Positions 1,866-23,724 are shown, counted from the first letter of the stretch. The stretch is DNA of 32,000 bases from Synechococcus sp. A15-24 (GCF_014280195.1 NZ_CP047960.1:210001-242000); one strand, 5' to 3'. Numbers and translations: made by a program. The notes: a model not told the origin generated them from the letters alone.

Positions 1866-2498
1866 CTAAGCCTGCGCAATCAATTCGCGTGTTTTTAAGA
1901 GGGGCTTAAAAGCTCTCATGTCTTTGACTTCCCAAAATGATTCAACAAGTGGGCATTGATTTCGATATCTGGTGGCGGTGCTTTCGAACTCTGCTTGGCT
2001 TGGCTCAAGGAAGCCATAACAGATATCAAGAAAGATATCTATATGATCTAAGTTAACCTGTCGTTTGATTAATCCCTTCTCAATTAATTTCCAGGTAGCG
2101 AGTGACGAGGACTGAGATTGATTTTTCAGTTCTTCGAATGATTCGCGAATTGCACTACCATATTCCTTTATATGTTCCGCAGAAAATGATTTACCTTGAT
2201 TCGTGCGATCGTTGCTGCTATGAGAATTCGATTGTAAAATGAATTGTCCAATAAAATGCTTCAATTCTTGATGGTATAACTTTTCCAGGGAAGTGTTTGA
2301 TAATGACATCGATGCAAATTCTAGCTCCTTCATTACTTGTGAGCATTGAGAAAAGAATGTTTCAACGTAATCCTGCCCTAATAGCTGAACCTGGCGATTC
2401 AAATGTTCGAGAACTGATTCAAAGTGAGGAGCGATCTTTTCGGGTATTCGAAGTCGCGTGGTTGTTCCAAGCGCTGGATAGTTCTTTTGGAATGGCAT
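1866..2498 (-). CDS. hypothetical protein, orphan, low-GC
   Basis: A 210-aa ATG-initiated ORF is the only long open frame in the AT-rich islet, where stop codons should be frequent by chance. I recognise no family. It is Ser/Gln/Glu-rich and has no TM segment or signal peptide. Confidence 0.55.
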   Translation of the reverse strand: MPFQKNYPALGTTTRLRIPEKIAPHFESVLEHLNRQVQLLGQDYVETFFSQCSQVMKELEFASMSLSNTSLEKLYHQELKHFIGQFILQSNSHSSNDRTNQGKSFSAEHIKEYGSAIRESFEELKNQSQSSSLATWKLIEKGLIKRQVNLDHIDIFLDICYGFLEPSQAEFESTATRYRNQCPLVESFWEVKDMRAFKPLLKTRELIAQA

Positions 2499-2720
2499 AT
2501 GACTTAAGAGCAGAAGCCTTCAAATGCTCAATCGCGACAAAAATTTCATCGAAGGTGTGGCGCGAGCAAAGCATGCTGGGTTATAAATTAGTAATCAAAT
2601 TTTTAGCATGAGGTTAAATCCTGCGTTACGGCGACTTTTTGTGTGATTTCGGAGACAAATTTGTTGGCGACCTCTCTGTGTGACGCTTTCTTCTTTGGTA
2701 TTTATCTGGATTGTTTGATT

Positions 2721-2836
2721 TGGGACGAATTGACTTTTGATTCGGGACGCATTTTATTTTTCATGCGTCCCGTTTGCCTTGAATATGTCCCGTGGGTTTG
2801 TCCTAGTTCTTTCACTTGTCCCGTGTATTTGTCCCG
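2721..2836. promoter_or_regulatory. array of GTCCCG / CGGGAC motifs with a central perfect 10-bp inverted repeat (candidate operator or iteron array)
   Basis: GTCCCG occurs on the plus strand at 2767, 2787, 2818 and 2831. CGGGAC occurs at 2743 and the variant TGGGAC at 2721. Degenerate GTCCT (2800) and GTCTG (2852) are also present. The inverted repeat is CGGGACGCAT (2743-2752), a 10-nt loop, then ATGCGTCCCG (2763-2772). The array lies in the divergent spacer between the 210-aa and 684-aa genes. Confidence 0.5.
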
Positions 2837-2993
2837 AACACACAAGCGATTGTCTGTTTTCTTGGACTTGGAGCATGAATTGATCTGATGTAGTGCGGCA
2901 AACATCTCTCTGAAAGAACCCTCGTTATCAAGGCAGTGATGTTGCGCGTTACTGATGTCAACGTGCAGCGCGATTCTTTAAGTCTCTTATTCC

Positions 2994-5048
2994 ATGGCTA
3001 AGAAGGTCACCATCGGGCAAACAACTGCTCTGATCCCAGAAGCCGGTTCCGCGATTCAACCTGAGTGGCTGCTCGACGGGGAAAGTGGCAACACCAACTT
3101 CCCGTACTCCAGCTACAAGGCTCTCGCCACCGTCGGCGAGGTGGATGCCAAGACTAAGCTAGGTCTCACCGGTTATCCCGATGGTCAGGCTGCCTGGCTT
3201 GTGGATGATGACACCGTTCGTGTTGCCTATCAGTCTGAGTCTTATGCCAACGTCACTGGCTACCGCACTGGCGTAGCCGAAGGTGAGACCTATGCACGGG
3301 CAATGAAGACCGGTGTGACCTTCACTGGATCCAGGATCCACACCATTGACTACGCCCGCGATGCATTCGCGGATTTCATGAACAATGATTCTGCCGCCAG
3401 CGACATGGTTAAAGGCAGCGGTTTCCTGTTTAATCGTGTGTTCAACCTCTTTGGTGAAGAGGTCACTCCTAAGAACACTGATCCCACGGATCTGGCAGCC
3501 AAGTGGGGCAACCAGACCCTGCCTTCCGGTGACATCATTGAGTTCAGTGCCCCTCTCGCCGACGCTGACTTTTTCTTCCACTCCTTTTGTGGCGCTTGGT
3601 ATGAGCCTGCCAATCGTTATGGCGAAGGACAGGGCTTCAGCGATGACATCTGGCTGATGGCCGAAGAGTGGGACATCGGTGAAGACGCTTTCGGTCCCGC
3701 AGGATCGGCCGTGGGTAACGAGACCATGGGTCTTGCTGCTATGGCCGTCGATGTTGCCAATGAAGTCGCCTACTCCGTACCGGCCCTGGGCCAGACCGGT
3801 TACGAGAAGATCGCACCTCTGAACACCGGTGAGAGCGATTACGTGGTGATGGTGACTGCCGGTTACAATCACGGCCAAGATCCTGCTCCTCTGAAGATCT
3901 ACGTCGGCCGCAAGGGCTACGACGCAGAAGGCAACGTGATCACTGAGGATCACAGCGAGCGCGATCAGTTTCTGGGCCGCAACGGCATGCTCTGGGGTCA
4001 GCTCTATGGCCAAACCCTGAAGAACAAGCACTTCGACAAGCTGGGTATCGTCGCCGACGAAGATGGCAACGGCCGTTTCGACGACCAGGTGATGAACACC
4101 TACCTGACTTCCCAGGCGAAGGCTGGTGATTCCTACAAGGGTCGTTTCTATCCCACCAGCTTCCAGTGGGGCGGCTGGGATGAGCCCACCGCTGTTGGCA
4201 ACACCGAGATGTTCCTCTGGGAGCGTCCCGAAGAGCAGCCCAAGAACTACACGTTCTTCCAGGGCGACAAAAAGACCGAGCACCAGGCCATAGATCCTTC
4301 TGGAAAGGCTCGCTGGTTCCAGAACATGACCGATGAGGGTGCTCTGCTTGGCTTCAACTTGAAGAATCTGGCCAAGCAGCTCAAGAGCAACCCTGATGCT
4401 GATGGTAACTCGCTGCCTGACTACATCAACTACAAATCTGTTGTGACCATCCCCGCCACGGATGGATCACTGCGTGTTGATGTGGGTGATGAAGGTCTAG
4501 CCCACAAAGGTGAAGCCAACCCTGACGGCAGCCTCACTCATGCCACGCACGTTGAAAAGGGTGTTGAGAAGATCGTTTCCAACGACGGTCTGTACTGGGC
4601 CAAGGGTAAGGACGGCAATGTTCTGATCCTGGATGAGGATTCCGGCAACGATTACGGCGAGCGCAAGATTGCACTTCCTCTCAAAGGAATGGAATTGCGT
4701 GATGAAGCCACCGGTTACTTCCTGGGTGCTGCTGGTGGTACTCTCAGCCCACGTTATGAAGCTGGCGCTGCTGCTCTGGCTGGAGCGTTCTCTGCTGCAG
4801 GGACTAATGAGTTCTCCGGCAGCTGGGATGTCACGGGCATGGTGACCCGCAAAGATGACGGCAGCTTCTATTCCAAGGAAGAGCTGTCTGGCAGTGGCAT
4901 GCAGGATGTGGCCGATATGGTCCACATCGAGGATCACACCTACATCGGTGTTGTTCAGGCCCGTCCTGAGTCCGGCGGTCAGGTTGAGGAGATCGGCGGC
5001 GATGCCGGTGGCCAGGTGTTCATGTTCGAAATGAGCAACTTCTACTGA
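2994..5048 (+). CDS. hypothetical acidic 684-aa protein, possibly a beta-propeller-type exported or cell-surface protein
   Basis: The ATG-initiated ORF is long and uninterrupted, with coding-like codon bias (GGT/GGC, ACC, CTG, GAC). It is Gly/Asp/Glu-rich and has no N-terminal signal peptide or TM segment. A strong intrinsic terminator follows it. Patterns such as YPDGQAAWLVDDDTVRVAYQSE and ILDEDSGND only loosely recall DUF839/phytase-like propellers. Confidence 0.8.
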   Translation: MAKKVTIGQTTALIPEAGSAIQPEWLLDGESGNTNFPYSSYKALATVGEVDAKTKLGLTGYPDGQAAWLVDDDTVRVAYQSESYANVTGYRTGVAEGETYARAMKTGVTFTGSRIHTIDYARDAFADFMNNDSAASDMVKGSGFLFNRVFNLFGEEVTPKNTDPTDLAAKWGNQTLPSGDIIEFSAPLADADFFFHSFCGAWYEPANRYGEGQGFSDDIWLMAEEWDIGEDAFGPAGSAVGNETMGLAAMAVDVANEVAYSVPALGQTGYEKIAPLNTGESDYVVMVTAGYNHGQDPAPLKIYVGRKGYDAEGNVITEDHSERDQFLGRNGMLWGQLYGQTLKNKHFDKLGIVADEDGNGRFDDQVMNTYLTSQAKAGDSYKGRFYPTSFQWGGWDEPTAVGNTEMFLWERPEEQPKNYTFFQGDKKTEHQAIDPSGKARWFQNMTDEGALLGFNLKNLAKQLKSNPDADGNSLPDYINYKSVVTIPATDGSLRVDVGDEGLAHKGEANPDGSLTHATHVEKGVEKIVSNDGLYWAKGKDGNVLILDEDSGNDYGERKIALPLKGMELRDEATGYFLGAAGGTLSPRYEAGAAALAGAFSAAGTNEFSGSWDVTGMVTRKDDGSFYSKEELSGSGMQDVADMVHIEDHTYIGVVQARPESGGQVEEIGGDAGGQVFMFEMSNFY

Positions 5049-5108: not shown

Positions 5109-6533
<1,425 letters not shown>

Positions 6534-6613
6534 GGCGGTCGGTTGGGCGTCAGCAGGGCGAGCCTATGACTGAGCCGGGAGCCCTACGGTTCACCCATCA
6601 CAGCCGGGTTGGC

Positions 6614-7549
6614 ATGGGCAGCGAGCAGCTCTGGGTGGTAGCGGCTTGTTTCAACGAGGAGGTGGTGATCATCCGGTTCATCGAACGCGTCCTGGCCTTG
6701 CCTCAGGTGAGCCGGTTGTTGTTAATCGACGACGGCTCCTCCGACGCAACGGTTGCGGTGACTCGCGCTTGGCAGCAGTCCCATCCTGATCAGGGGCTGA
6801 CGCTGTTGGAACTCACCCGCAACTTCGGCAAGGAGGCCGCCATGCTCGCGGGCCTGGATTTTGCCGATGGCCGATGCAGCGCAGCCGTGTTGATCGACTC
6901 GGATCTGCAGCATCCGCCCGAACGCATCCCGGCGATGGTGAAGGCCTGGCAAGACGGTGCTGAGGTGGTCACGGCTGTCCGCGATGACCGCGACGCTGAA
7001 GGCCTGATGAAAGTGGCCACCGCCTCTTGGTTCTACCGGGTGTTCAATCGCCTGGTGGATTCGATCCAGTTGCAGGAAGGAGCCGGCGATTTTCGGTTGC
7101 TCAGTGCTCCGGTGATTGAGGCAGTCATTCAGATGCGCGAGGCCACGCGTTTCTCCAAAGGGCTGATGCCATGGACGGGCTACCGCAGTGTCGAAATTCC
7201 TTACAGCCGCGTCGCGCGGGCTGGAGGTGCAACCTCCTGGAGCTCTCTCAAACTGTGGCGTTACGCCCTTGACGGAATCTTTTCGTTCTCAGTGAAGCCC
7301 CTCAAGGTGTGGGGGGGGATCGGCCTGCTGATATCCCTGCTCAGCTTTCTCTACGCAGCACTGATTGTGCTGCGAACCGTGGTCTTCGGTGTGGATCTGC
7401 CGGGCTATGCCTCGTTGATCGTGGCGATCCTCTTTCTCGGTGGAATCCAGCTGATTGGCATCGGTGTTCTTGGCGAGTACATCGGCCGGATTTATATCGA
7501 TGTCAAGCGCCGGCCCCACTACTTCATCCGCGCGGTGCACGAGTCCTGA
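6614..7549 (+). CDS. polyprenyl-phosphate glycosyltransferase, GT2 family (GtrB/ArnC/DPM1-like)
   Basis: The GT-A N-domain shows VVAACFNEE, LIDDGSSDAT and the DxD-like VLIDSDLQHPP. Two C-terminal TM helices (GGIGLLISLLSFLYAALIV and SLIVAILFLGGIQLIGIGVLGEY) precede the RIY..VKRRP tail typical of GtrB/ArnC. I prefer ATG 6614, because ATG 6566 leaves only 32 nt to the divergent icd start. Confidence 0.9.
   Translation: MGSEQLWVVAACFNEEVVIIRFIERVLALPQVSRLLLIDDGSSDATVAVTRAWQQSHPDQGLTLLELTRNFGKEAAMLAGLDFADGRCSAAVLIDSDLQHPPERIPAMVKAWQDGAEVVTAVRDDRDAEGLMKVATASWFYRVFNRLVDSIQLQEGAGDFRLLSAPVIEAVIQMREATRFSKGLMPWTGYRSVEIPYSRVARAGGATSWSSLKLWRYALDGIFSFSVKPLKVWGGIGLLISLLSFLYAALIVLRTVVFGVDLPGYASLIVAILFLGGIQLIGIGVLGEYIGRIYIDVKRRPHYFIRAVHES
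7311..7318 (+). repeat. G8 homopolymer inside the GT2 coding sequence
   Basis: The codons read AAG GTG TGG GGG GGG ATC (KVWGGI), giving eight consecutive G at 7311-7318. This is the longest homopolymer I saw inside a gene in this window. Confidence 0.9.
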
Positions 7550-8711
7550 GGGCCTTCCATTCGTGTTGCCGCCAAGGTGAACTGAAAAATGCGGCTGAGC
7601 GATGAAACTGATGTTGCTCAAGCTGATCTGGGTTTACAGCGGCCGCAGGATGGGCCAGCAGTAGGTCGCCATCACCCAAGGAACGTTCAGCAGCATCAAG
7701 GGCGGCACCCGCCATCTTTCCGGTGAACAGCACACCGGCAAAGCGCTGATTGGTGCGGATGCCAGCTGCCTTGAGTTTTCTCCGCGCCAGCCACGTGAGC
7801 GGTTGCAGCACCAGCCACTTGAGCAATCCGCCATCCCTGAGCGCTTTGATCCACAGCTCGAGGGGAAGGCCCTGCGGCAGCGGCTCTGCAGTAGTGCGCA
7901 CCCAGACGATCTCCGGTTGTCCCAGCACAACATCCAGCACCAGTGGCACGAGATGAATGTGCTGATGTCCGTCGAGCTGGATCTGGTGCTGACCCGTGAG
8001 CTGCTGAAAACGATGGATCTGCGCCTGGATCGATTGGACGACCTGAGTCCGCAACGCACGACGTTTCGGCGGCAGCAGAGAACTCAGCAGCAGCGCGCCA
8101 AAACCTGCCGGTAGATCAGGACAGTGCTGTGGTTGGGGCCCTTCCGTCAGGCAGAGATGCAGAACAAGTGGATGGGCCTTGGGTAAGCATCGCCAGGCCT
8201 CGGCGGCTGATTCAGCCGTTGCTCCATCCACCAGCAGGCTGGCGCTGGTGAGACGCCCTGCTGTCGCCAGATCAAGGATGGCGGTGTTGACCCCAGGTGC
8301 GAGGCCAAGATCATCGGCGTGGATGGCAGGGCGTCCAAGGCGTTGACGTTGATGCAGAGCCCCGCGGGCTGCGCGATTCCAGATCAGCGCGTTGAGCGCA
8401 GTGGGCGTGAACACCAGCACCACGGTTGGAGCATTCAGCAGTGGGAGCAGCGAGCAGACGCTGATGTTCACGGCGTACTGCAGCAACAACCAACGCCGAG
8501 CGAAGCGTCGCCCTCCGGTCTCCTCCCGGAAGGTCACCAGGGCATGACCCAGATATCCCGCAATGGAGGCGGTGAGAAAGCCGATCGGGTTGGCCAGGCT
8601 GAGGGGGAGCCAAGACCCGAGGCTCAGCAGCACGGCTGCATGAATGACGGCGGCGATGAGGCCGATGGCGCCGTAGCGCACCAGTCGGTTCAAGGCCGCC
8701 GGCAGGTTCAT
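7524..8711 (-). CDS. fusion protein: N-terminal GtrA-like 4-TM domain plus C-terminal YdjC/ChbG/HpnK/NaxD-family carbohydrate deacetylase
   Basis: The N-terminal roughly 120 aa (RLVRYGAIGLIAAVIHAAVL, NPIGFLTASIAGYLGHALVTF, then two more hydrophobic helices) match the GtrA pattern. The C-domain has the YdjC hallmarks IHADDLGLAPGVNTAI, LTSASLLVDG and DGHQHIH. The ATG at 8711 overlaps the mtnN stop as ATGA. Confidence 0.8.
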   Translation of the reverse strand: MNLPAALNRLVRYGAIGLIAAVIHAAVLLSLGSWLPLSLANPIGFLTASIAGYLGHALVTFREETGGRRFARRWLLLQYAVNISVCSLLPLLNAPTVVLVFTPTALNALIWNRAARGALHQRQRLGRPAIHADDLGLAPGVNTAILDLATAGRLTSASLLVDGATAESAAEAWRCLPKAHPLVLHLCLTEGPQPQHCPDLPAGFGALLLSSLLPPKRRALRTQVVQSIQAQIHRFQQLTGQHQIQLDGHQHIHLVPLVLDVVLGQPEIVWVRTTAEPLPQGLPLELWIKALRDGGLLKWLVLQPLTWLARRKLKAAGIRTNQRFAGVLFTGKMAGAALDAAERSLGDGDLLLAHPAAAVNPDQLEQHQFHRSAAFFSSPWRQHEWKALRTRAPRG

Positions 8712-9448
8712 CGCGTCGACAACCGCTTGAGCAGCGCTTCGATCAGGCTCCAGGCCCGTTGGTCATAGACCTGCACGAAGTCGCTGAAGCTCTGAGCGGC
8801 TGCCTCATCGGCACCGTCGGAGATCACCCGCAGCACCAGCCAGGGCACCCCTTCCTGCTCCGCCACCTGAGCCACGGCACCCCCTTCCATTTCCACCGCC
8901 TGCAGATCCGGCAAGGCCGCTTTGAGCTCCTGCAGTACTGCGGCATCACCAATGAACTGATCACCAGTGGCAATCAGTCCCGGGCGTATGGCTCCAAAGC
9001 CCTTTAGCTCGCCGGTTTCCTGGGCAGCGTTCAGGGAGCGGCTGGCCCAGGCCAGCCAGTCCGGATCGGGCTGCAGACGATCGCGGTTCAGCGGCGGCAG
9101 GGTGAAGCGGGGAAACAGGGGGCTGGCATTCATGTCGTGCTGAATCACGGCATCCGCCAGCACCACGTCCCATTGCTGCAGTGCGGTTTCGGCTGCACCG
9201 GCCACCCCGGTGAAGAGCAGCAGATCCAGGTCTGGAGCCGCCGCCATCAGACGGGTTGCAGCCCTGGCTGCGCACACCTTCCCCCACCCACTCCAGGCCA
9301 GGGTGAGTCGGACCCCATCGCCCCAGACGCCCTGGTGCAGCGTTAGGTCGCCATGGTCAGTGCTGCTGAGCTGCCTGAGATGACTCAGATCCGAGCCGAT
9401 CTCCTCTGGCATGGCGCTAAGCAGGCCGATGTGCAGCGGGGGTGTCAT
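8708..9448 (-). CDS. mtnN: 5'-methylthioadenosine/S-adenosylhomocysteine nucleosidase family (PNP_UDP_1) protein
   Basis: IGLLSAMPEEIGS near the N-terminus and VEMEGGAVAQVAEQEGVPWLVLRVISDGADE match the MtnN/Pfs signatures. I prefer the start at ATG 9448 (MTPPLHIGLL); the track ORF extends upstream to 9568. Confidence 0.75.
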   Translation of the reverse strand: MTPPLHIGLLSAMPEEIGSDLSHLRQLSSTDHGDLTLHQGVWGDGVRLTLAWSGWGKVCAARAATRLMAAAPDLDLLLFTGVAGAAETALQQWDVVLADAVIQHDMNASPLFPRFTLPPLNRDRLQPDPDWLAWASRSLNAAQETGELKGFGAIRPGLIATGDQFIGDAAVLQELKAALPDLQAVEMEGGAVAQVAEQEGVPWLVLRVISDGADEAAAQSFSDFVQVYDQRAWSLIEALLKRLSTR

Positions 9449-9526
9449 GGCTTTGTGAACCTGGCGCAACCGTAACGGCGACATCGACTGTTTCTCTTCA
9501 ACATGCCTTGAGGGACTGGCAGTGCT

Positions 9527-9970
9527 TTGAACGCAGGCGAATCCGTGCGCAGTGTCGATCAGGCCCAAGCCCTGGCCTCGGTGATCACACTGGTGCGGCA
9601 GCGGTTTCCAGCGGCCAAGGCCAACCTCACGCCCTGGCGGGATGACCCGCAGACCCGGCAGTGGTCAGAACAGGACAGTCTCGACCTCTCCTTTCATTTC
9701 CCTGGTTGGAGTCCACGACTTCAATGCCGCAGCCTCTTGATTCAGCTGCGGTTCTGCGGCGAATCGGCCGAGGTTCAGCCTTCACTGTTGGGAGTGTTGA
9801 TGCGGGGCATGACCTACGACGGTGAACGCTGGCGGCTTGCCACCGTTGGGGAGTGGCTGCCAGAGGGCCCTCACCTGCCCCAACCGGATCAGGTGATCCA
9901 GCTGCAGATGATCTGCAGGGACCTGTTTGAGCTGTTCAGCGGTTCGACGGCCGCGGACGAGGCGGCGTAA
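9527..9970 (+). CDS. hypothetical protein
   Basis: This 147-aa ORF is divergent from mtnN and has no competing supported gene. I recognise no family. Confidence 0.45.
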   Translation: MNAGESVRSVDQAQALASVITLVRQRFPAAKANLTPWRDDPQTRQWSEQDSLDLSFHFPGWSPRLQCRSLLIQLRFCGESAEVQPSLLGVLMRGMTYDGERWRLATVGEWLPEGPHLPQPDQVIQLQMICRDLFELFSGSTAADEAA

Positions 9971-10045: not shown

Positions 10046-10759
10046 ATGTCTGTCGCTCTGGCTGCCCAGCTCCGGGAAGGCACCAAGAAATCCCACACGA
10101 TGGCCGAAAACACCGGCTTCGTTAGTTGCTTCCTAAAGGGAGTGGTGGACAAGGCCAGCTACCGCAAGCTGGTGGCTGATCTCTACTTCGTGTACACCGC
10201 AATGGAAGAGGAGATCTCAAAGCTGGGCGATCACCCCGTGGTCGGTCCGGTGGGCATGCAGGAGCTCAACCGACGTGAGGCCCTGGAGCAGGATCTCGTC
10301 TATTACTTCGGTGCTGGCTGGAAGGATCAGATTCAACCGTCTCCCTCAGCAGCGGCTTATGTGGAGCGGATCCATGCCGTGGCTCAGGAGTCACCGGAGT
10401 TGCTGGTGGGTCACCACTACACCCGCTACCTCGGCGACCTCTCCGGTGGCCAGATCCTCAAGAACATTGCCCAGAAGGCGATGAACATGGATGGAGATGA
10501 TGGCCTCCACTTCTATGTCTTCAACGACATCTCCGACGAGAAGGCTTTCAAGACCACCTATCGCTCCACGATGGATGAGCTGCCCATCGATCAGGCGATG
10601 GCCGATCGGATCGTGGAAGAAGCCAATCACGCCTTCCACCTGAACATGAACATGTTCAAGGAACTGGAGGGCAACCTGGTGGCTGCCATCGGCAAGGTGC
10701 TGTTCGGCTTCCTGACCCGTCGCCAGCGCGCCGGCAGCACGGAGGCTGCGGCAGCCTGA
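10046..10759 (+). CDS. ho1: heme oxygenase 1
   Basis: The N-terminus MSVALAAQLREGTKKSHTMAENTGFVSCFLKGVVDKASYRKLVADLYFVYTAMEEE is near-canonical cyanobacterial HO-1, including the proximal His in TKKSH. Confidence 0.95.
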   Translation: MSVALAAQLREGTKKSHTMAENTGFVSCFLKGVVDKASYRKLVADLYFVYTAMEEEISKLGDHPVVGPVGMQELNRREALEQDLVYYFGAGWKDQIQPSPSAAAYVERIHAVAQESPELLVGHHYTRYLGDLSGGQILKNIAQKAMNMDGDDGLHFYVFNDISDEKAFKTTYRSTMDELPIDQAMADRIVEEANHAFHLNMNMFKELEGNLVAAIGKVLFGFLTRRQRAGSTEAAAA

Positions 10760-10763
10760 TTCC

Positions 10764-11804
10764 GTGCCCACCACGCTCATTCGCATCCTCGTCCCCGGCA
10801 CCAGCAAACGGTTCCGTTGCGGTGGTCTGAGTGTGGAGCTGCAGACGGCTCGACTGTTGTCGAGCCTCTGTGCAACGGAGCTGGTGACCTACCGGGAGCG
10901 GCATCAGGATCATCCATGTCTGGATGATCTACTCACCGTTGAGCCTTCTCGGCCGGAGGTGCTCTGGATCGTCAGCTGGGGATTTGATGTTCCGGCATTG
11001 GTCCGTCGGTTACGGAGCCATCGCGTGGCTTATCACGCCCACAGCAGTGGGTATGGCTTCACGCTTCCCCCTGGGGTGCCGGTGCTGGCGGTGAGTCGGA
11101 ACACCCTGGGCTACTGGGGTGATCGTTGCCCCCGCAACCCTTTGTTGCTGGTGCCCAATGCCATCGAGCCCGGTTGGCTGGAACGAGGCGCCCGGGGTAG
11201 TGCGGAGCGCCGTCCAATCGATGTGTTGGTGCAGGCCCGCAAGAGCAGTCGGTACGTGTTGGATCAGCTGGTCCCTGCCTTGCGGCAGCAAGGGCTCAGG
11301 GTGGAGGTTCAAAGCGGCTGGGTCGATGACCTCGTTGATCTGTTCAACCGCTCCTGCGTTTATCTCTACGACTCAGCCGAGTACTGGCGTGGACGCGGCG
11401 TTACGGAGGGCTTTGGCTTACCACCGCTGGAGGCCATGGCCTGCGGTTGTGTGGTCTTCGGCAGCCTGAATCACGCTCTGGCCGACCACGGTGATCCTGG
11501 TCGGATGGTCCATCAGATCGGCTGCGGGCGCTTGCTCTTTGATGTGCGCCGGATCCAGCACGCCGTCCGCGATCCAGCTGGGTGGAGACCACCGGCAGCA
11601 GCTCTGAATGCTGTGCTGGAGGGGAGCTCAGAGGCGTCCCTGCTGCAGCGTTGGACGGTGGCGCTGGATCAGCTGGATGCCCTGGACCTGGCTGAAGGTC
11701 CGCTGCTCAGCAGCCCACCCACCTGGCAACTGAGGCTGCAGCAGCTCTGCCAACGGCTGCAGCGAGTGGTCGATCGGTTGCCCGGCTGGCCTTCCACCCG
11801 CTGA
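10764..11804 (+). CDS. GT-B fold glycosyltransferase (GT4-like)
   Basis: The C-terminal motif EGFGLPPLEAMACGCVVF is the GT4-type E-x7-E region. The GTG start lies 4 nt after the ho1 stop. Confidence 0.65.
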   Translation: MPTTLIRILVPGTSKRFRCGGLSVELQTARLLSSLCATELVTYRERHQDHPCLDDLLTVEPSRPEVLWIVSWGFDVPALVRRLRSHRVAYHAHSSGYGFTLPPGVPVLAVSRNTLGYWGDRCPRNPLLLVPNAIEPGWLERGARGSAERRPIDVLVQARKSSRYVLDQLVPALRQQGLRVEVQSGWVDDLVDLFNRSCVYLYDSAEYWRGRGVTEGFGLPPLEAMACGCVVFGSLNHALADHGDPGRMVHQIGCGRLLFDVRRIQHAVRDPAGWRPPAAALNAVLEGSSEASLLQRWTVALDQLDALDLAEGPLLSSPPTWQLRLQQLCQRLQRVVDRLPGWPSTR

Positions 11805-11871
11805 GGGCAGTGGTTCGCACGCCTTAACGTCCTCAAATGCAGGCTGGCGTTGCGTCTGCCCGATCGCTGCC

Positions 11872-13689
11872 ATGCCCTTGCGAAGCCAGACCTGGAGAGA
11901 TCTGCGGCGCCTGCTGAAGGAGTTGCCACCCAGCCGGCTTCGTTTTCTTGTGGTGGTGCTGGTGGCCTCTTTCCTGCAGGGCCTGATGGACATCCTGCTT
12001 GTGGGTCTGTTGGCGCGGCTGGTGGGCTTGATGGCCGGCGTGAAACTGGCGGATCAGATCCCCGGCATCCACGTCTTTGGTGGGGGCATGCTCGATCAGG
12101 CCGGCTGGTTGCTGGGGTTGTTGGTCGTGGCGTTCTGGCTCACCTCCGGCCTGCGCTTTGGTGTGGCATTTCTGCAGAGCATGCTCAGCGCCGAGATCTG
12201 GAATGACCTGGTCAATAAGGTCTACCGGAATCTGATGCTGCAGGACTATGAGTTCTTCACGCATCACCGCACCGCCAATCTTTCCGAGAGCTTCAACCGG
12301 ATCCTGAACAAGGTTTCCACGACCGTGGTCAGTCCAATGATCACGATTGCGGGCAATGCCCTTTCGGTGCTGGTGCTGCTGAGCGGTGTGGTGCTGGTTC
12401 TGGGCACCCCGGCTCTGCTGATGTTCGGTTTGATGCTTGGTTCCTATGCCTTGGCATCGAAGCTGATCATTCCCTATCTGCGCTTCGCCACCAAGCAGCG
12501 GGTGCGCTACTCCAGACGGATCCATTTGCTGCTGATGGAATCACTGCGATCGATGCGAGATGTGCAGCTCTATTCCGCCGAGCGATTCTTCATCAATCGC
12601 TTCGCCAGCGATGGCGTTGTGGCCAAGCGCTACGACCGGTTGACCAAATTGCTGCCGGATGTGCCTCGCTATGTGATCGAGCCAGCTGGAATCACGATTC
12701 TGTTTCTCGTGGGCCTCGGACCCTCCGTTCTCAGTGGGGATGCCGTCAGCGTGCGGGAGGCCATTCCCACCCTGGCAGCGGTGCTCGGTACCTTGCTGCG
12801 CATCTCCGGACCCCTGCAGAACACCTTCCGCAATATCAACAAACTTCGCGGCGGTTTGCCTGAAATTCAGGATGCACTGGAGTTGCTGGACCTTCGCCCC
12901 AAGCGCCTGAACACCAGCGCACCGGGGGTCCCCACGCCCAGTGGTGTGATGCCACGGCAGTTCATTCAGCTGCGTGATGTGAGCTTCAGCTACTCCGGCA
13001 GCGAGGAATCTGTGCTGTCGAACGTTGATCTCACCATTCCCGTTGGATCACGCATCGCCCTGGTCGGTCGCACGGGCAGCGGCAAAACCACCCTGGCCCA
13101 TCTGCTGCTTGGTCTGTTCCGCCCCAGCAGTGGTGATCTCACCCTGGACGGTCTTCCCCTGAATGAGGAAGAGTTGCCGGCCTGGCAGGGCAACTGCGCC
13201 CTGGTGCCCCAGGACATCCGACTGCTGGATGCCAGCATCCGCGACAACGTCGCCTTCGGCTGTGATCCGGAGGAGATTGAGGACGATCAGGTCTGGGCAG
13301 CACTGGAAGCAGCTCAATTCGAAGATGTCGTCAGCGCTATGCCGTATGGGCTTTTCACCATGATCGGTGAAAACGGGATCAAGCTGTCTGGCGGACAGCG
13401 TCAGCGGTTGTCTCTAGCCCGTGCCTTCTACCGCGATGCCAAGGTGCTGGTGCTGGATGAAGCCACCAGTGCTCTCGATAACAAGACCGAGCACGACGTA
13501 ATGCAGGCCCTGGATCTGGTGGGACGTCGCTGCACCACGATTGTGATCGCCCATCGCCTGTCCACCGTGCGCAAGTGCGATCGCATCTATGAGATCGAAG
13601 ACGGGCGGATCAAAGCGTCTGGTGATTTCGACACCCTCTGCGGCCTGTCGGACAGCTTCCGTGAGATGACCCGGTTCGAAACCGCCTGA
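11872..13689 (+). CDS. ABC exporter, fused TMD-NBD half transporter (MsbA/PglK/Wzk-like)
   Basis: An N-terminal domain of about 300 aa contains multiple TM helices. The NBD carries Walker A GRTGSGKTT, the signature LSGGQRQR, Walker B VLVLDEATSALD and the H-loop IAHRL. Confidence 0.9.
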   Translation: MPLRSQTWRDLRRLLKELPPSRLRFLVVVLVASFLQGLMDILLVGLLARLVGLMAGVKLADQIPGIHVFGGGMLDQAGWLLGLLVVAFWLTSGLRFGVAFLQSMLSAEIWNDLVNKVYRNLMLQDYEFFTHHRTANLSESFNRILNKVSTTVVSPMITIAGNALSVLVLLSGVVLVLGTPALLMFGLMLGSYALASKLIIPYLRFATKQRVRYSRRIHLLLMESLRSMRDVQLYSAERFFINRFASDGVVAKRYDRLTKLLPDVPRYVIEPAGITILFLVGLGPSVLSGDAVSVREAIPTLAAVLGTLLRISGPLQNTFRNINKLRGGLPEIQDALELLDLRPKRLNTSAPGVPTPSGVMPRQFIQLRDVSFSYSGSEESVLSNVDLTIPVGSRIALVGRTGSGKTTLAHLLLGLFRPSSGDLTLDGLPLNEEELPAWQGNCALVPQDIRLLDASIRDNVAFGCDPEEIEDDQVWAALEAAQFEDVVSAMPYGLFTMIGENGIKLSGGQRQRLSLARAFYRDAKVLVLDEATSALDNKTEHDVMQALDLVGRRCTTIVIAHRLSTVRKCDRIYEIEDGRIKASGDFDTLCGLSDSFREMTRFETA

Positions 13690-13696
13690 GCCGGTT

Positions 13697-15691
13697 ATGG
13701 CCGATGTCATCGTCCTGGCCACCGCCGACTGGGACCATCCCCTCTGGACCAACAAGCAGCACACCGCCGTCAGCCTTGCTGCCCTTGGCCACCGGGTTCT
13801 CTACGTGGAATCCCTGGGGCTGCGTCCACCGCGCAAGGGGGCCGCGGATCTGCCGCGGATGCTCAAGCGCCTGCGTCGGGTGTTGCGCTGGCCGCGGCGC
13901 GTGCAAAACGGTGTCTGGGTCTGGTCTCCTCTGGTGCTGCCTGGAGCCTCTCATCCCCTGGCGCAGCGGCTCAACCGATTGCTGGTGCGCAGAGGGCTTG
14001 ATCTCGCTCGGCGCTGGCTGAGGTTCCGTTCACCAATGCTGTGGACCTACAACCCGCTGACCCTTGAGGTCCTGTCGCTCTCGTCCTTTGCGGGTTCGAT
14101 TTATCACTGCGTCGATCGCATCCAGGCTCAGCCTGAAATGCCGGCGGACCGCATCGAACGGGCGGAACAGCAGCTCTGTCAGGCCGTCAATGTCGTGTTC
14201 ACGACGGCGCCGGAATTGCAGGCGTCTTTGGCACCGCTCAATCCCCACACCCATTTTTTTGGCAATGTGGCGGATTTCGACCACTTCGCCCGTGCATGGC
14301 GGGACCCGGGTCCTTGCCCTGACCCGCTGAAGAAATTGCCGTCACCCAGGCTGTTGTTCACCGGCGCCATCGATGCCTACAAGCTCGATCTGCCGTCGCT
14401 GACCCGACTGGCCCAGCGACGGCCCGACTGGACGTTTGTGCTCGTAGGGCCGGTGGGTGAGGCGGATCCCAGTACCGATGTGAGGGCCCTGCAGGCCTGC
14501 TCCAACATTCATCTGCCGGGCCCCCGCCCCTACGACGAGCTGCCGGATTGGTTGGCCCACAGCGACGTGGCGCTGCTGCCACTACGCCTCAATAGCTACA
14601 CCCGCAACATGTTCCCGATGAAATTTTTCGAGTACTTGGGGGCGGGGCGGCCCGTGGTGGCCACAGCGATTCCTTCATTGCAGTCCTTCGGGGAAGCTGC
14701 CCAGCTGGTGGAACCCTCCGAGGGAGCGTTTGAAACCGCCATCAGCCAGTGCCTGGAGGACCATGGTCCTTCCCTTGAAACACGCCTTTCCCTGGCGCAG
14801 CGTCACACCTATGTGTCCCGATCGCGCGGGATGGTTGCCGTGCTGGAGCAGCTGGGGTTGATCGATCAGCCCTGGTCTGGCGGATCTGCGTCGAGGAGCG
14901 TTCAAAAGATGCTGCAGCGCGGTGATGTGGATGCCGCCATCGGACTGATCCGCCTCCAGTGGCAACAGAACGCCGACGTGTCCGCCTTGCATCAGTTGCT
15001 GTTTCGTCGTGGTGCCCGGCCGCCCTCTGCTTCGCTGCAGGTCGCGTTGTTTGAGGCGCTGGCGAAGGACGCGTCCCTGCCGATGCCGGAGCGTTCCTAC
15101 AGCCAGATCGCTCTGACGTATCGCGTCCTCAAGGATCGTCGGGTCCACCTGTTGCAGTGCTGTCGGCTCGAGCTTGAGCCGTTGATCGCCCAGCTGGAGC
15201 AGGACCCTGGCACGTTGGTGTGTCAGCGCCCCAATCGACGTAACCGCGCCAAGTTGCTGATCTCTGCTTCGACGGCTCTCATGCTGGTTCTGGCCATGCA
15301 GGCAGATCGGAGTGCCCTGCTGCAGCTCAGCCAACGGATCGGCATTTGGTTGGATCGTCTCAACCTCGCAGCGATTCAGGCGGATGCTGCCTTCCGGATG
15401 ACCCGCAATCTCTGCCGCTGCCTGCTGGTGGAGGCGGTGGCGCAGCCAACCCAGCAGGCGCGGCTGCGACTGCAGCGTCTTATTGACTTCACCGGGCAGG
15501 AACGCTTTGTGGGTCATCCGGCGCAGGAGGATCACCGGGGCATCGCGAGCGCTTCCCTGGCCGATCTTGAGGAGGCATCGGCCGCTGGCTGCGATCGTCT
15601 CTGTGCCCTGATCAGTGATGAGCCACGGGATCTTGGTGTCACGGCTGCTGATCTGCTGACGCTGCTGCGGGACGATGGCCGTACCGCCTGA
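13697..15691 (+). CDS. GT-B glycosyltransferase (TuaH-like GT1/GT4) with an unrecognised C-terminal domain of about 265 aa
   Basis: The N-domain shows VIVLATADWDHPLWTNKQH, LLFTGAIDAYKLD and MFPMKFFEYLGAGRPVVA. The C-terminal part, from about aa 400, is a paralogue of the C-terminus of the 17992-19788 product. Confidence 0.8.
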   Translation: MADVIVLATADWDHPLWTNKQHTAVSLAALGHRVLYVESLGLRPPRKGAADLPRMLKRLRRVLRWPRRVQNGVWVWSPLVLPGASHPLAQRLNRLLVRRGLDLARRWLRFRSPMLWTYNPLTLEVLSLSSFAGSIYHCVDRIQAQPEMPADRIERAEQQLCQAVNVVFTTAPELQASLAPLNPHTHFFGNVADFDHFARAWRDPGPCPDPLKKLPSPRLLFTGAIDAYKLDLPSLTRLAQRRPDWTFVLVGPVGEADPSTDVRALQACSNIHLPGPRPYDELPDWLAHSDVALLPLRLNSYTRNMFPMKFFEYLGAGRPVVATAIPSLQSFGEAAQLVEPSEGAFETAISQCLEDHGPSLETRLSLAQRHTYVSRSRGMVAVLEQLGLIDQPWSGGSASRSVQKMLQRGDVDAAIGLIRLQWQQNADVSALHQLLFRRGARPPSASLQVALFEALAKDASLPMPERSYSQIALTYRVLKDRRVHLLQCCRLELEPLIAQLEQDPGTLVCQRPNRRNRAKLLISASTALMLVLAMQADRSALLQLSQRIGIWLDRLNLAAIQADAAFRMTRNLCRCLLVEAVAQPTQQARLRLQRLIDFTGQERFVGHPAQEDHRGIASASLADLEEASAAGCDRLCALISDEPRDLGVTAADLLTLLRDDGRTA

Positions 15692-15698
15692 ACCGTTG

Positions 15699-16850
15699 AT
15701 GCGCCGTGTCGTTCTCTACGTCGATTCCCTCAAGATCGGCGGAGCGGAGCGGGCCACCCTGACCTTTGCCCGCTGGCTGCGGCAGAACGGCTGGACGCCA
15801 ATCGTCTTGACACGCCAGTCATGCACCTTCGATTTCTATCCGATTCCCGCCGGGGTGGAGCGGGCGGTGGAGCCTCCCGATCCCCGGTGGCTGCGTCTGC
15901 TTGGCCGCTGGGGATTGCCCTGGCGGGTGCGTCGCTTGCGTCATTGGCTGCGCCAGCAGCAGGTGAGCCTGGCCATCGGCATGACCACCAAGCCGGCTGT
16001 GAAGTTGCTGTTGGCAGCCCATCCCCTGAGGATTCCATGTGCAGTGTCCGAGCGGAATTTCCCGCCGTTGAAACCGATGGCACTCCCCTGGGGGGTGCTG
16101 CGGCGGTTCAGTTACCGCTGGGCCTCGTTGCATATCGTGCAGACCCGGGCGACCGGAGAGTGGCTTAAGCAACAGTTGTCGGCAGAGCCGCAATTGCTGT
16201 TGCCCAACCCAGTGCAGTGGCCGCTGCCCCGGTTTGAACCCGAGCTTGATCCAGACCAGTGGCTGACTGAGGTTTGCGTCGCCTCGGACGCGCCGGTGTT
16301 GCTGGCAGCCGGCACCAAAGCCCACCAGAAGGGCTTCGATCTGCTGGTGCAGGCGTTTGCAGATCTGATTCCCCGTCATCCCAATCTTCAGCTCGTCATC
16401 CTTGGGCTGACCCAGGAGACTTATCACGACTCAGATCAGCAAAAGGCCCTGCGGCGACTGCTCAGGCGTGATCCCGAGGCACAGGCACAACTGCATTTCC
16501 CTGGTCGGGTGGGGAACATGGCGGATTGGTACCGACGCTGCACGTTGTTTGTGCTGCCCTCACGGTACGAAGGGTTCCCCAATGTGCTGCTGGAGGCGAT
16601 GGCAGAGGGCTGCTGTTGTCTGGCGGCCGACTGCCCCCATGGTCCTGCTGATCTGCTGCGCCACAACACTGATGGATTGCTGCTGCCGCGGCAGGCCACG
16701 GCGACACGCTGGTCTGAAGCCATCGATCGGCTGTTGCTGGATCCCAGTCAGCGTCAACGGCTCGAGGGGGAAGCGGCGACGGTGCGTGAGCGCTTTTCCG
16801 ACCGTGCCCTGGAAGCTCAGTTGATGCAGGCGCTGGGGCAGCTCGACTGA
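15699..16850 (+). CDS. glycosyltransferase family 4
   Basis: Motifs are MRRVVLYVDSLKIGGAER (N-terminal GT4 pattern) and LPSRYEGFPNVLLEAMAEGCCCLAAD. An alternative ATG at 15675 overlaps the upstream stop. The stop overlaps the next start as TGATG. Confidence 0.85.
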   Translation: MRRVVLYVDSLKIGGAERATLTFARWLRQNGWTPIVLTRQSCTFDFYPIPAGVERAVEPPDPRWLRLLGRWGLPWRVRRLRHWLRQQQVSLAIGMTTKPAVKLLLAAHPLRIPCAVSERNFPPLKPMALPWGVLRRFSYRWASLHIVQTRATGEWLKQQLSAEPQLLLPNPVQWPLPRFEPELDPDQWLTEVCVASDAPVLLAAGTKAHQKGFDLLVQAFADLIPRHPNLQLVILGLTQETYHDSDQQKALRRLLRRDPEAQAQLHFPGRVGNMADWYRRCTLFVLPSRYEGFPNVLLEAMAEGCCCLAADCPHGPADLLRHNTDGLLLPRQATATRWSEAIDRLLLDPSQRQRLEGEAATVRERFSDRALEAQLMQALGQLD

Positions 16851-17995
16851 TGCCTTTGCATGTTCTGCTGATGGCGCCTAGTCGGCGGGCTGCATCGGAG
16901 ACCTTCATCCGGGCCAATCTCCGCGGGTTGCCCTTCCGCAAAACCGCTGTTTTCGGGGATGAACGACCAATCGGCCGTCCTCTGGCTTTTGCCCATGGTC
17001 TGGCGGTGCTCCTCAGCAAGGCACTCACGGTGCTGGGTCTGCTGCGTCTGGCCTCTCTGCCGGCAGCCTGCACCACCTGGCTTCTGCTGCAGCGGCAACG
17101 CCCGGATGTGATGTTGGTGGATTTCGGTTTCCACGCCGTGCGGGTGATGGAGGCCGCTGCCTGGAGTGGGGTGCCGCTTGTGGTTCACTTCCGCGGCTCG
17201 GATGCCTCATCTGAATCGAAGTTTCAGCGGCTTCGCGATCGGTACCGGCGGCTGTTTCAACTCACCGATGGCGTGATCGTGAAGAGTCGGCCGATGCAGC
17301 AAGCACTGCAATCCCTAGGCGCTGAGTCGAAGTCGATGGTGATCAGTCCCTCGGGGGCGGATCCAGCCTTGTTCCATGGAGCGGATCCGGCCGCGGCACC
17401 CCCTCGCCTGTTGGCGGTGGGCCGTCTTGTGGCCAAGAAGGGACCGCTGCAGACCCTCCAGGCCTTCGCGCGCCTGGTGGCCAGACTCGACGAGCCGTTG
17501 CGCAGTCGAGCTGAGCTGCTGATCGTGGGCGAGGGCCCCCTGCAGGATCAGCTGCAGGAGTTCGTGGATGACCAACAGCTGTCTGGACAGGTGCAGCTGC
17601 GCGGACTTCGCTCGCCTCAGCAGATCGCTGATCTGATGCGATCAGCCCGTGGTTTTGTGCAGCATTCCGTGGTGGCGCCCGATGGCGACAGTGAGGGCAA
17701 CCCTGTTGCGGTGATGGAAGCGCAACTCTCTGGTCTTCCTGTGGTCGCCACACGCCATGCCGGGATCCCTGAAGTGGTGCTCGACGGCGACACCGGTTTG
17801 CTGGTGGAGGAAAAGGATGTGGAGGCCATGGCTCAGGCCATGGGCCGGCTTCTGCTGGAACCAGATCTCGCAGCGCGCCTTGGTGCAGCAGGACGGCGAC
17901 GGGTGGCCAATGGCTTCACCGTTCAGCACCATTGGTCCGCGGTGAGCGGTGTGTTGGAGCGGAGCGCTGCGGCCCGATCCCCCTGGACGCGATGA
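16850..17995 (+). CDS. glycosyltransferase family 4
   Basis: SEGNPVAVMEAQLSGLPVVATRHAGIPEVVLDGDTGLLVEE is the classical GT4 C-terminal motif. The stop overlaps the next ATG as ATGA at 17992-17995. Confidence 0.85.
   Translation: MPLHVLLMAPSRRAASETFIRANLRGLPFRKTAVFGDERPIGRPLAFAHGLAVLLSKALTVLGLLRLASLPAACTTWLLLQRQRPDVMLVDFGFHAVRVMEAAAWSGVPLVVHFRGSDASSESKFQRLRDRYRRLFQLTDGVIVKSRPMQQALQSLGAESKSMVISPSGADPALFHGADPAAAPPRLLAVGRLVAKKGPLQTLQAFARLVARLDEPLRSRAELLIVGEGPLQDQLQEFVDDQQLSGQVQLRGLRSPQQIADLMRSARGFVQHSVVAPDGDSEGNPVAVMEAQLSGLPVVATRHAGIPEVVLDGDTGLLVEEKDVEAMAQAMGRLLLEPDLAARLGAAGRRRVANGFTVQHHWSAVSGVLERSAAARSPWTR

Positions 17996-21809: not shown

Positions 21810-23724
<1,915 letters not shown>

Follow-up and report, generated by a model that had tools for sequence, protein, structure and literature searches.

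The described systems that come closest to the locus reported here are LgmA/LgmB/LgmC of Bordetella and FlmF2-NaxD-FlmK of Francisella and Acinetobacter, which have in common with it an ArnC-like glycosyltransferase of family 2 (GT2) and a YdjC-family deacetylase. In a stretch of 32,000 nucleotides from Synechococcus sp. A15-24 (NZ_CP047960.1:210001-242000; the whole stretch is called the window, and positions are counted from its first nucleotide), these two activities are encoded together, the deacetylase being part of a single polypeptide with a GtrA-type membrane domain. This conserved picocyanobacterial gene pair most likely makes a lipid-linked amino sugar for cell-surface decoration.

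NaxD reportedly converts the N-acetylgalactosamine derivative of undecaprenyl phosphate (Und-P-GalNAc) to Und-P-galactosamine (Und-P-GalN). In B. pertussis, lgmA, lgmB and lgmC are required for the addition of glucosamine (GlcN) to lipid A, whereas lgmD, the fourth gene of the cluster, is dispensable (PMC4993483). Compared with the Lgm and NaxD systems, the deacetylase of Synechococcus is fused to GtrA and the GT2 gene is convergent to it instead of lying in the same operon. The acceptor must also be another one if the lipid A is phosphate-free, as stated for marine Synechococcus in a review (PMC4377996), for it then cannot be lipid A phosphate. Finally, both described systems feature an ArnT-like GT-C transferase, whereas none lies beside the module of the window, as the original prediction had noted, and PMT or PMT_2 genes occur near the fusion in three related loci (L026, L029 and L027).

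A second group of relatives comprises the three-component GtrA/GtrB/GtrC-type systems (Shigella phage Gtr, CsbB-GtcA-YfhO, GtlA-GtcA-GtlB and CsdAB-CflA), with which the locus shares a GT2 carrying a transmembrane (TM) hairpin and a GtrA-type 4-TM protein. In these systems the GT2 makes an Und-P-monosaccharide, the GtrA-type protein has been proposed to flip it and a GT-C enzyme carries out the final transfer; glucose (Glc), galactose or N-acetylglucosamine (GlcNAc) is transferred unmodified and no deacetylase is described (PMC8035078). Here, in contrast, YdjC is covalently joined to GtrA, implying an editing step on the lipid-linked sugar.

The Arn pathway (ArnC, whose role is described in PMC12690121, ArnD, ArnE/F and ArnT) follows a shared logic, in which an N-acylated amino sugar is placed on Und-P, deacylated in the cytoplasm, flipped and transferred by a GT-C enzyme. 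No Arn sugar-nucleotide genes were found in the window. The deformylase ArnD is a polysaccharide deacetylase of the carbohydrate esterase 4 type and not a YdjC protein, the ArnE/F flippase resembles small multidrug resistance proteins and not GtrA, and the sugar is 4-formamido-4-deoxy-arabinose (Ara4FN). In mycobacteria, polyprenyl-P-GalNAc is deacetylated before GalN transfer, and we know of no deacetylase identified for that step. Small polytopic membrane partners of polyprenyl-phosphate N-acetylhexosamine (HexNAc) synthases occur in mycobacteria (PpgS/Rv3632) and in Streptococcus pyogenes (GacI/GacJ; PMC8035078), but partners of the GacJ/Rv3632 type stand alone and carry no enzyme domain, GacJ being an activator while a Wzx-type protein does the flipping. 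ChbG and HpnK share with the fusion the YdjC fold and an Asp/His/His site, but they are soluble single-domain proteins found in other gene contexts.

The logic of the pathway is already familiar from the LgmABC, FlmF2/NaxD, Arn and three-component Gtr systems, and what is new to study is the covalent GtrA-YdjC form. The fusion had been put forward as uncharacterised, and this agrees with the literature search, in which no paper naming GtrA together with YdjC was found and publications combining GtrA, deacetylase and undecaprenyl were judged, on the portions of their text available, to be irrelevant to the fusion.

The glycosyltransferase and the GtrA-YdjC fusion

The elements of the module are as follows (coordinates in the window, strand, description):
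6566..7549, + strand, GtrB/ArnC-type polyprenyl-phosphate glycosyltransferase (GT2) of 327 aa, with a GT-A domain, juxtamembrane helices and a C-terminal 2-TM hairpin
6614, + strand, alternative GT2 start (Met17), as plausible as the start at 6566
6896..6904, + strand, GT2 DXD motif D111-S-D113, equivalent to GtrB D94/D96 by pairwise mapping to sll0501 (roles from PMC4728340 and PMC12698845)
7298..7486, + strand, GT2 C-terminal transmembrane hairpin, approximately residues 245-307, with hydropathy peaks of 2.56 and 2.46, aligning to TM1/TM2 of 5EKP
7524..7549, no strand, tail-to-tail overlap of 26 nt between the convergent GT2 and fusion genes, annotated identically in KORDI-49
7524..8711, - strand, GtrA-YdjC fusion, a single open reading frame (ORF) of 395 aa with both domains above the Pfam gathering thresholds
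8337..8711, - strand, GtrA-type 4-TM domain of the fusion, residues 1-125, supported by PF04138 score, charge counts and AlphaFold2 helices
7524..8336, - strand, YdjC-family carbohydrate deacetylase domain, residues 126-395 plus the stop codon, predicted to be cytoplasmic
8310..8315, - strand, codons of D133-D134, the catalytic/metal-site Asp pair (D134 being the equivalent of ChbG D11), from the 7VI8 alignment
8157..8159, - strand, codon of H185 (equivalent of ChbG H61), from the 7VI8 and 13-ortholog alignments
7959..7967, - strand, codons of H249-Q250-H251 within DGHQHIH, H249 being the equivalent of ChbG H125, from the 7VI8 and ortholog alignments

The GtrB/ArnC architecture proposed for the GT2 was borne out by several comparisons. 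The protein matches Glycos_transf_2 (PF00535, E=4e-25) and, end to end, the NCBIfam models PgfS (2.3e-75) and ArnC (2.2e-43), without reaching the equivalog cutoff of either, in addition to a weak match to PpgS. Residues 21-321 align to residues 27-326 of the Synechocystis sll0501 GtrB structure (PDB 5EKP, E=7.9e-83), residues 24-324 align to three ArnC structures (E~4e-38), and the C-terminal hairpin is present. At 46.6% identity to sll0501, all 11 functional residues mapped pairwise are kept: the DXD/Mg residues D111, D113 and Q115 (GtrB D94, D96 and Q98), the Und-P-binding R139, R142, K149, K198, R215 and R218 (GtrB R122, R125, K132, K180, R197 and R200), D175 in the place of the candidate base D157, and W225 in that of the gate residue W207. 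The roles in DXD/Mg binding, in the binding and guiding of the Und-P phosphate, as candidate base and as gate are those assigned to GtrB (PMC4728340; PMC12698845). Regarding the start codon, homolog alignments open at residues 13-22, and KORDI-49 carries gene calls of both 311 and 327 aa.

The convergent gene had been described as a fusion of a GtrA-type 4-TM domain to a YdjC-family deacetylase, and both domains pass their Pfam cutoffs. Residues 12-98 match GtrA_DPMS_TM (PF04138) with 36.0 bits (cutoff 26.1) over profile positions 1-86 of 117, so that the N-terminal region does score as GtrA, and residues 130-390 match YdjC (PF04794) with 136.2 bits (cutoff 29.7) over positions 4-257 of 266. 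The quoted motifs IHADDLG (residues 130-136) and DGHQHIH (residues 247-253) are present, and the domain aligns to ChbG (PDB 7VI8) with E=5e-11. The Asp/His/His metal site is complete, and D133, D134, H185, H249, H251 and H253 are invariant in a 13-sequence ortholog alignment reaching down to 38% identity. An AlphaFold2 model of the fusion, built from a 28-sequence alignment, had a mean predicted local distance difference test score (pLDDT) of 80.7 and a predicted template modelling score of 0.71, with helices at 3-31, 37-65, 72-91 and 96-122 followed by an alpha/beta domain of pLDDT 85-97; the TM region was of lower confidence (pLDDT 53-79). All seven Foldseek matches in the PDB with E<1e-3 were YdjC-family proteins, namely ChbG (7VI8), TTHB029 (2E67), EF3048 (2I5I) and CmCBDA (8JQE/8JQF). 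The domain is nevertheless not an equivalog of ChbG (NF002559, 57.3 bits vs. a cutoff of 227) or of HpnK (TIGR03473, 86.5 bits vs. 232.6).

The TM helices of the fusion lie at approximately residues 13-34, 37-59, 75-92 and 94-112, with a basic linker at 113-128 and a conserved cytoplasmic loop, TFREETGGRRFARRW. Lysine plus arginine counts were 2 for the N-terminal segment, 0, 5 and 0 for the TM1-2, TM2-3 and TM3-4 loops, respectively, and 5 for the stretch of 17 residues past TM4, an unambiguous distribution that by the positive-inside rule places both termini in the cytoplasm. The predicted topology is therefore N-in, 4 TM, C-in, which answers the question of the membrane face on which the YdjC domain is expected to sit. 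Shigella GtrA is likewise said to be N-in/C-in. Members of the GtrA family, of about 120 residues, have 3-4 TM helices (PMC8035078). With both termini inside, the YdjC domain would share the face of the GT2 catalytic domain, and deacetylation would precede flipping. The tether between YdjC and TM4 is short, the basic linker amounting to about 15 residues, and the catalytic Asp pair lies about 20 residues past the end of TM4.

As GtrA and YdjC are separate genes elsewhere, in two loci (L032 and L074) one in-frame stop codon apart, and the window itself holds at least one indel-disrupted gene, the possibility was considered that two genes had been joined by a sequencing, annotation or assembly error. 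We regard the chance of this as negligible. Hundreds of assemblies made independently contain the uninterrupted ORF, among them the complete genomes of KORDI-49 and of Prochlorococcus MIT 0707, single-cell genomes and metagenome-assembled genomes (MAGs), and for this reason a missed stop or frameshift can be excluded. The best 120 homolog clusters are 395-452 aa long with both domains, except for two N-terminally shorter entries with YdjC only (346 and 299 aa), and the same single ORF is found in more than 100 clusters at 90% identity. In an exhaustive search of 1.84 billion representatives, the full GtrA-to-YdjC architecture formed about 11 clusters at 50% identity.

The fusion is carried by marine Synechococcus, Prochlorococcus, Cyanobium and Vulcanococcus and is kept down to about 38% identity. 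A scan of one genome per GTDB species, in which 80 loci were listed (25 picocyanobacterial and 55 non-cyanobacterial), revealed no GtrA-YdjC fusion outside those four genera. The nearest database proteins to those of the window are from marine Synechococcus, and the gene order around the module is identical in KORDI-49. Annotation pipelines already label the fusion, as 'ChbG/HpnK family deacetylase' by NCBI and as 'ChbG / putative flippase GtrA' by IMG. A phage or plasmid origin of the module was considered and rejected: no copy of the fusion was found there, the matches being a YdjC fragment (34% coverage) in one Salmonella phage record and standalone YdjC on Azospirillum replicons.

Linkage of GT2, GtrA and YdjC across genomes

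A GtrB-type GT2 gene lies beside the fusion, tail to tail, in all 25 picocyanobacterial loci, and the two gene ends abut or overlap in 24 of them, being 1.9 kb apart in the remaining one (L023). The association extends to the nearest non-cyanobacterial YdjC relatives, since 43 of the 55 loci carry a full-length GtrB-type GT2 within the flanking sequence analysed, nearly always adjoining YdjC or with only a GtrA or GT-C gene between. These distant loci belong to Alpha- and Betaproteobacteria, Oscillospiraceae, Saccharibacteria, Terriglobia and Binatia.

The three functions are also found as neighbouring genes. An Oceanospirillales bacterium (L045) has four overlapping genes for GT2, GtrA (79.7 bits), YdjC and PMT_2 (132 bits), and in two Herminiimonas loci (L032 and L050) and in the proteobacterial MAG L074 the separate GT2, GtrA and YdjC genes follow the order of the cyanobacterial domains. 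In H. contaminans (L032, 10370-10435) and in L074 (1390-1440), only one stop codon separates gtrA from the in-frame ydjC, the two genes being five codons and one codon apart, respectively; a single mutation would thus be enough to recreate the fusion. The nearest non-cyanobacterial YdjC relatives, with approximately 30-36% identity in YdjC, are found in loci of Castellaniella, Alcaligenes and Bordetella that encode a GT2 and YdjC with, in between, a PMT_2 protein of about 550 aa, an order that we take to be that of the lgmA-lgmB-lgmC locus.

A fusion in the reverse order, YdjC-GtrA, of about 410-435 aa, was detected in at least 18 clusters (12 confirmed with Pfam and six by precomputed domains). 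In three related contigs of the Patescibacteria type (candidate phyla radiation, CPR; contigs L004-L006, the first annotated as Patescibacteria group bacterium) its gene lies directly 3' of a GT2 of 313-315 aa on the same strand, and in the second of these contigs a PMT_2 gene overlaps the stop of the fusion and a second, free-standing GtrA gene is also present. Triple fusions of YdjC, GtrA and a methyltransferase exist (P0192, P0229 and P0252, 638-680 aa), as does a YdjC-GT2 fusion (P0320). Provided that GtrA has both termini inside, YdjC stays cytoplasmic in either domain order. Judged from these sequences, the GtrA-YdjC link recurs independently, as separate proteobacterial genes and as the reverse CPR fusion. 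The functional coupling of the GT2 and the fusion that had been predicted from the window is thus strongly backed by comparative genomics, that is, by the 25 of 25 and 43 of 55 loci, the operons and the fusions.

Other proteins were seen beside these non-cyanobacterial genes. YdjC-methyltransferase fusions occur, methyltransferase-linked entries including P0165 and P0218, and methyltransferase genes of class I or FkbM type follow YdjC-GtrA in the three CPR contigs (L004 9283-10149, L005 6290-6979 and L006 9246-11401). This points to N-methylation, in those lineages, of the amine that is freed on the lipid-linked sugar; the window was not found to encode such a methyltransferase. Directly upstream of the GT2/YdjC-GtrA pair, the same contigs encode a protein of about 550 aa without Pfam match (L004 5327-6982, L005 4633-6285 and L006 5393-7042), with 51-58% identity among them.

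Proposed pathway, donor sugar and acceptor

The following pathway can be proposed. A tetrameric GtrB/ArnC-type GT2 would move HexNAc from a UDP-sugar to Und-P at the inner face of the cytoplasmic membrane, and the membrane-held fusion would de-N-acetylate the product through the metal-dependent Asp/His/His site of its YdjC domain, yielding Und-P-hexosamine (Und-P-HexN). The GtrA domain would bind the polyprenyl-phosphate sugar and most likely aid its crossing to the periplasmic face, its minimum role being to keep the deacetylase on its lipid substrate. Finally, a PMT/ArnT-type GT-C transferase, encoded elsewhere or not yet recognised in this genome, would pass the amino sugar to an envelope glycan. 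We consider this succession of Und-P-HexNAc synthesis, cytoplasmic deacetylation by a tethered YdjC, GtrA-aided translocation and GT-C transfer to be reasonably probable. The HexNAc donor, the deacetylation of the lipid-linked form, the flipping by GtrA and the acceptor are parts that we infer, and the linkage with GT2, GtrA and GT-C genes points to a NaxD-type activity, the deacetylation of polyprenyl-P-HexNAc, as the putative function of the fusion.

Several points weigh against this pathway. Among characterised GT2s the closest is sll0501, whose product, formed in vitro and accumulating in E. coli, is Und-P-glucose, UDP-Glc being the only donor named in the sections of that report bearing on it (PMC4728340), and glucose leaves nothing to deacetylate. 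The GT2 and fusion genes are convergent and not co-transcribed. The GtrA match of the fusion is weak (36 bits over 86 of the 117 profile positions), compared with 62-91 bits across the full PF04138 profile for stand-alone and reverse-fusion GtrA domains. The flippase role of the GtrA family is described as predicted or putative, and the small, 3-TM GacJ promotes Und-P-GlcNAc production by GacI, with a Wzx-type protein as the flippase (PMC8035078). No GT-C gene was found in the window, where an ABC exporter is the sole ORF predicted to have four or more TM segments, and the lipid A of marine Synechococcus is reported to be phosphate-free in the review PMC4377996, which cites Snyder 2009.

The donor sugar could not be read from the sugar-contact residues of GtrB, an approach that was ruled out because the sugar is weakly coordinated in the GtrB structures obtained by cryo-electron microscopy, leaving the specificity residues undefined (PMC12698845). 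Orthologs of sll0501 share 72-78% identity across Nostoc, Pleurocapsales and Spirulina and have no YdjC neighbour, their neighbours including PMT_2 and VTT/DedA genes; the YdjC link is therefore specific to picocyanobacteria within the phylum. In a neighbour-joining tree, calculated without bootstrap and only indicative, picocyanobacterial GT2s formed a clade of their own, with the GT2 of the window outside the sll0501 clade, and the latter nested among YdjC-linked alphaproteobacterial GT2s. The tree placed sll0501 no nearer to the GT2 of the window than YdjC-linked GT2s. The identity of the GT2 was 44-47% to the sll0501 group and up to 45% to YdjC-linked GT2s. Given this placement and the similar identities to both groups, the glucose precedent does not transfer with confidence. 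A HexNAc donor would be expected because a deacetylase needs an acetyl group, and by analogy with lgm. The physiological pathway of sll0501 itself appears to be undescribed.

As a side observation, the sll0501 orthologs adjoining VTT/DedA genes are those of Nostoc and of another cyanobacterium (loci L087 and L089); the regions of interest are L087 5219-5923 and 7061-9007 and L089 896-5898 and 7073-7765. In L089 there are, in addition, two GT-C genes of the PMT_2 type and a gene fusing GT2 to GtrA (896-2089, 397 aa), and L087 encodes a 648-aa protein without Pfam match.

If the GT2 were a plain Und-P-glucose synthase like sll0501, the fusion could be unrelated to it and their adjacency a frozen accident of a compact core genome, with YdjC acting at the membrane surface on a chitooligosaccharide, a peptidoglycan-derived GlcNAc compound or a glycolipid. 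The convergent orientation, the sll0501 orthologs lacking a YdjC neighbour and the match of the YdjC domain to ChbG (57 bits; 7VI8) would all fit such an arrangement. Yet the adjacency persists in every picocyanobacterial locus down to about 38% protein identity, GtrB-type GT2s accompany distant YdjC relatives in several phyla, YdjC-GT2 and YdjC-GtrA fusions exist, the latter in operons directly after GT2, and the ChbG and HpnK equivalog cutoffs are missed widely. We therefore hold separate functions to be improbable.

A different question is whether GtrA flips the sugar. Within the same pathway it could serve as a membrane anchor, as a polyprenyl-phosphate scaffold or as an activator of the GT2, the flipping being left to another protein, such as one of the DedA/VTT, Wzx or ArnEF-like type. 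DPM synthases, too, have PF04138 as their TM domain, and in L089 this domain is fused directly to a GT2; VTT/DedA genes adjoin the sll0501 orthologs; the CPR contig L005 carries a free-standing GtrA gene besides its fusion; and both the GacJ precedent and the dispensability of lgmD point in the same direction. However, the GtrA domain was as conserved as the catalytic domain, or more so, in 11 of 12 orthologs, and it has invariant polar residues within its helices (H24, N41, Q78, N82 and N107 in the 13-sequence alignment), which together exceed the needs of a passive anchor. Moreover, the genetics of Listeria, Bacillus and Lactococcus place GtrA-type proteins between the GT2 and GT-C steps (PMC8035078). 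A GtrA domain that does not flip thus seems rather unlikely, while being a substantial competitor to GtrA-aided translocation.

The pathway may also be more tightly organised than proposed above, as a coupled editing-and-export machine in which YdjC hands the deacetylated Und-P-HexN directly to the attached GtrA and only the edited sugar is flipped. Such a solution would have arisen at least twice, as the picocyanobacterial GtrA-YdjC and the CPR YdjC-GtrA, with a methyltransferase added in some lineages, an addition that suggests lipid-linked N-methyl-hexosamine donors. We put this forward as a tentative possibility.

Regarding the acceptor, GlcN substitutes the phosphates of lipid A in Bordetella (PMC4993483), and a phosphate-free lipid A implies that the acceptor must differ from those of the Francisella and Bordetella systems. 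The acceptor is probably the lipopolysaccharide (LPS) core or O-chain, or another surface glycan, and not lipid A phosphate. A surface-glycan acceptor is plausible because a glycan gene cluster neighbours the module. It comprises (10764-19788, 26116-27760 and 30859-31704) genes for a GT1-like protein, an ABC exporter, three GT4 proteins, a 618-aa GT2-like protein, two sulfotransferases and a GT8-like protein, and may supply the acceptor glycan; sulfated glycans there would be notable.

The genes for the final transfer had been said to be missing beside the module, and they are missing from the whole window. They were found in relatives. In a Cyanobium MAG (L026), a PMT_2 gene, a PMT/PMT_2 gene and the fusion follow one another in the same orientation, the spacing from the second GT-C gene to the fusion being 7 nt; a Synechococcus UW140-like MAG (L029) has a PMT gene followed by the fusion, and in L027 a PMT_2 gene lies 1.7 kb past the GT2. 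For the GT-C proteins of L026 and L029, the highest similarity (26-34% identity) was to those of lgm-like proteobacterial loci. The partner is thus likely of the PMT/PMT_2 GT-C type, to judge from the genes abutting the fusion in these Cyanobium-like (freshwater, basal) relatives.

A second type of candidate transferase, from an unrecognised family, may be represented by a 638-aa protein with nine TM segments and no Pfam match encoded in the Synechococcus MAG L023 (11293-13209, + strand), the gene of which has an ATGA overlap with the stop of the fusion. Homologs are encoded within a few kb of the module in further marine Synechococcus, namely L018 (14816-16672), L014 (1-1200) and L019 (7-903), and none was found in the window.

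In the window, the original prediction had pointed to a disrupted gene as the only candidate for a GT-C partner:
20617-21809, - strand, disrupted polytopic membrane-protein gene with a frameshift and an in-frame stop

The disruption was confirmed. A 17-nt tandem duplication at 21637-21670, followed by a third, degenerate copy at 21671-21687, shifts the frame, and an in-frame TAA lies at 21046-21048. The candidacy as GT-C did not hold up. When the protein was reconstructed by deleting one copy of the 17-nt repeat, it showed no Pfam match at E<=10, and its hhalign probabilities against GT-C, Wzy_C and the L023-type protein were <=3%. Intact orthologs of 391-392 aa were found in only four metagenome contigs (for instance L090 1103-2281, 96% identity, and L091 381-1556, 92% identity), and none in the 25 related loci. 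The gene was therefore rejected as the partner, lacking GT-C profile similarity, being disrupted and having a narrow distribution; a strain-specific pseudogene fits poorly with a module conserved across picocyanobacteria. Besides a genuine pseudogene, phase variation of the gene or an error in the assembly could account for the disruption.

Neighbouring genes and implications

The gene directly upstream of the fusion is the following:
8708..9568, - strand, mtnN, methylthioadenosine/S-adenosylhomocysteine (SAH) nucleosidase, NCBIfam NF004079 188.6 bits vs. a cutoff of 169

Its stop overlaps the start of the fusion in an ATGA junction at 8708-8711 (translational coupling), an adjacency found only in one Synechococcus subclade (loci L001-L010). 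The ORF as listed has a TTG start and is 30 aa longer than the 256-aa gene call of KORDI-49, so that the true start probably lies further downstream. A functional partnership, in which SAH would be removed for a methyltransferase step, was judged incidental because of this limited adjacency and because no methyltransferase was found in the window; mtnN is probably an operon neighbour and not a functional part of the module.

The presence of a nucleosidase beside a YdjC protein also recalls the hopanoid genes of the HpnI/HpnK type, in which case the GT2 would add GlcNAc to bacteriohopanetetrol, YdjC would deacetylate it and the nucleosidase would act as HpnG. The best NCBIfam match of the YdjC domain is indeed HpnK, and the nucleosidase matches HpnG weakly (66.6 bits). 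However, both scores are far under their cutoffs (232.6 and 187.1), the nucleosidase passes that of MtnN and is adjacent in one subclade only, the GT2 is a full-length match to GtrB/ArnC/PgfS with the Und-P-binding residues kept, and shc, hpnH and hpnJ were not seen among the window ORFs scanned. To our knowledge, marine picocyanobacteria are generally regarded as hopanoid non-producers. A hopanoid role is accordingly very improbable.

The window has a G+C content of about 62% and includes icd (5109-6533, - strand), a heme oxygenase gene (10046-10759) and katG. Its envelope-glycan region holds the ABC exporter gene (11872-13689), GT4 genes (13697-17995), a GT2-like gene (17932-19788), kdsA (22846-23700) and kdsB (27760-28539). 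Two ORFs there have no Pfam match, at 19814-20656 (- strand, 280 aa) and at 21806-23083 (- strand, 425 aa); the latter overlaps the 3' part of kdsA in its listed form, so that its true start is probably internal, and its stop overlaps the ATG of the disrupted gene at 20617-21809. Within 1866-5048, a segment of low G+C content (0.41 in 2001-3000) is flanked by ORFs of 210 aa (1866-2498, - strand) and 684 aa (2994-5048, + strand), for which no Pfam match was found at E<=10. As KORDI-49 has a single 313-aa gene without Pfam match between icd and an Fe-S/CCG oxidoreductase gene, the segment looks like a strain-specific insertion.

We regard the module as a good lead instead of a surprise, because the pathway type is known and the system is known here from sequence alone. 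GtrA-deacetylase fusions in both domain orders tie GtrA to a deacetylated lipid intermediate, as recurrent evidence of the Rosetta-stone kind, and we know of no flippase assigned to the aminosugar pathways of the NaxD/LgmC type. The fusion is therefore a tractable natural construct for biochemical and structural tests of GtrA function and, if the editing and export steps are indeed coupled, it would be the first natural construct in which the disputed flippase role of GtrA can be tested through an attached enzyme, and the representative of a class of donor systems for lipid-linked amino sugars that is widespread and has gone unrecognised. For annotation, it advises caution, since some of the structurally solved 'GtrB' homologs may transfer sugars other than glucose. 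The module belongs to the conserved core genome of Synechococcus, Prochlorococcus and Cyanobium and predicts an undescribed free-amine sugar in their envelope, with possible consequences for surface charge, for resistance to grazing and for the receptors that phages use; were the coupled machine real, such a cationic sugar at the surface could influence how phages adsorb to the most abundant phototrophs of the ocean and how these are grazed.

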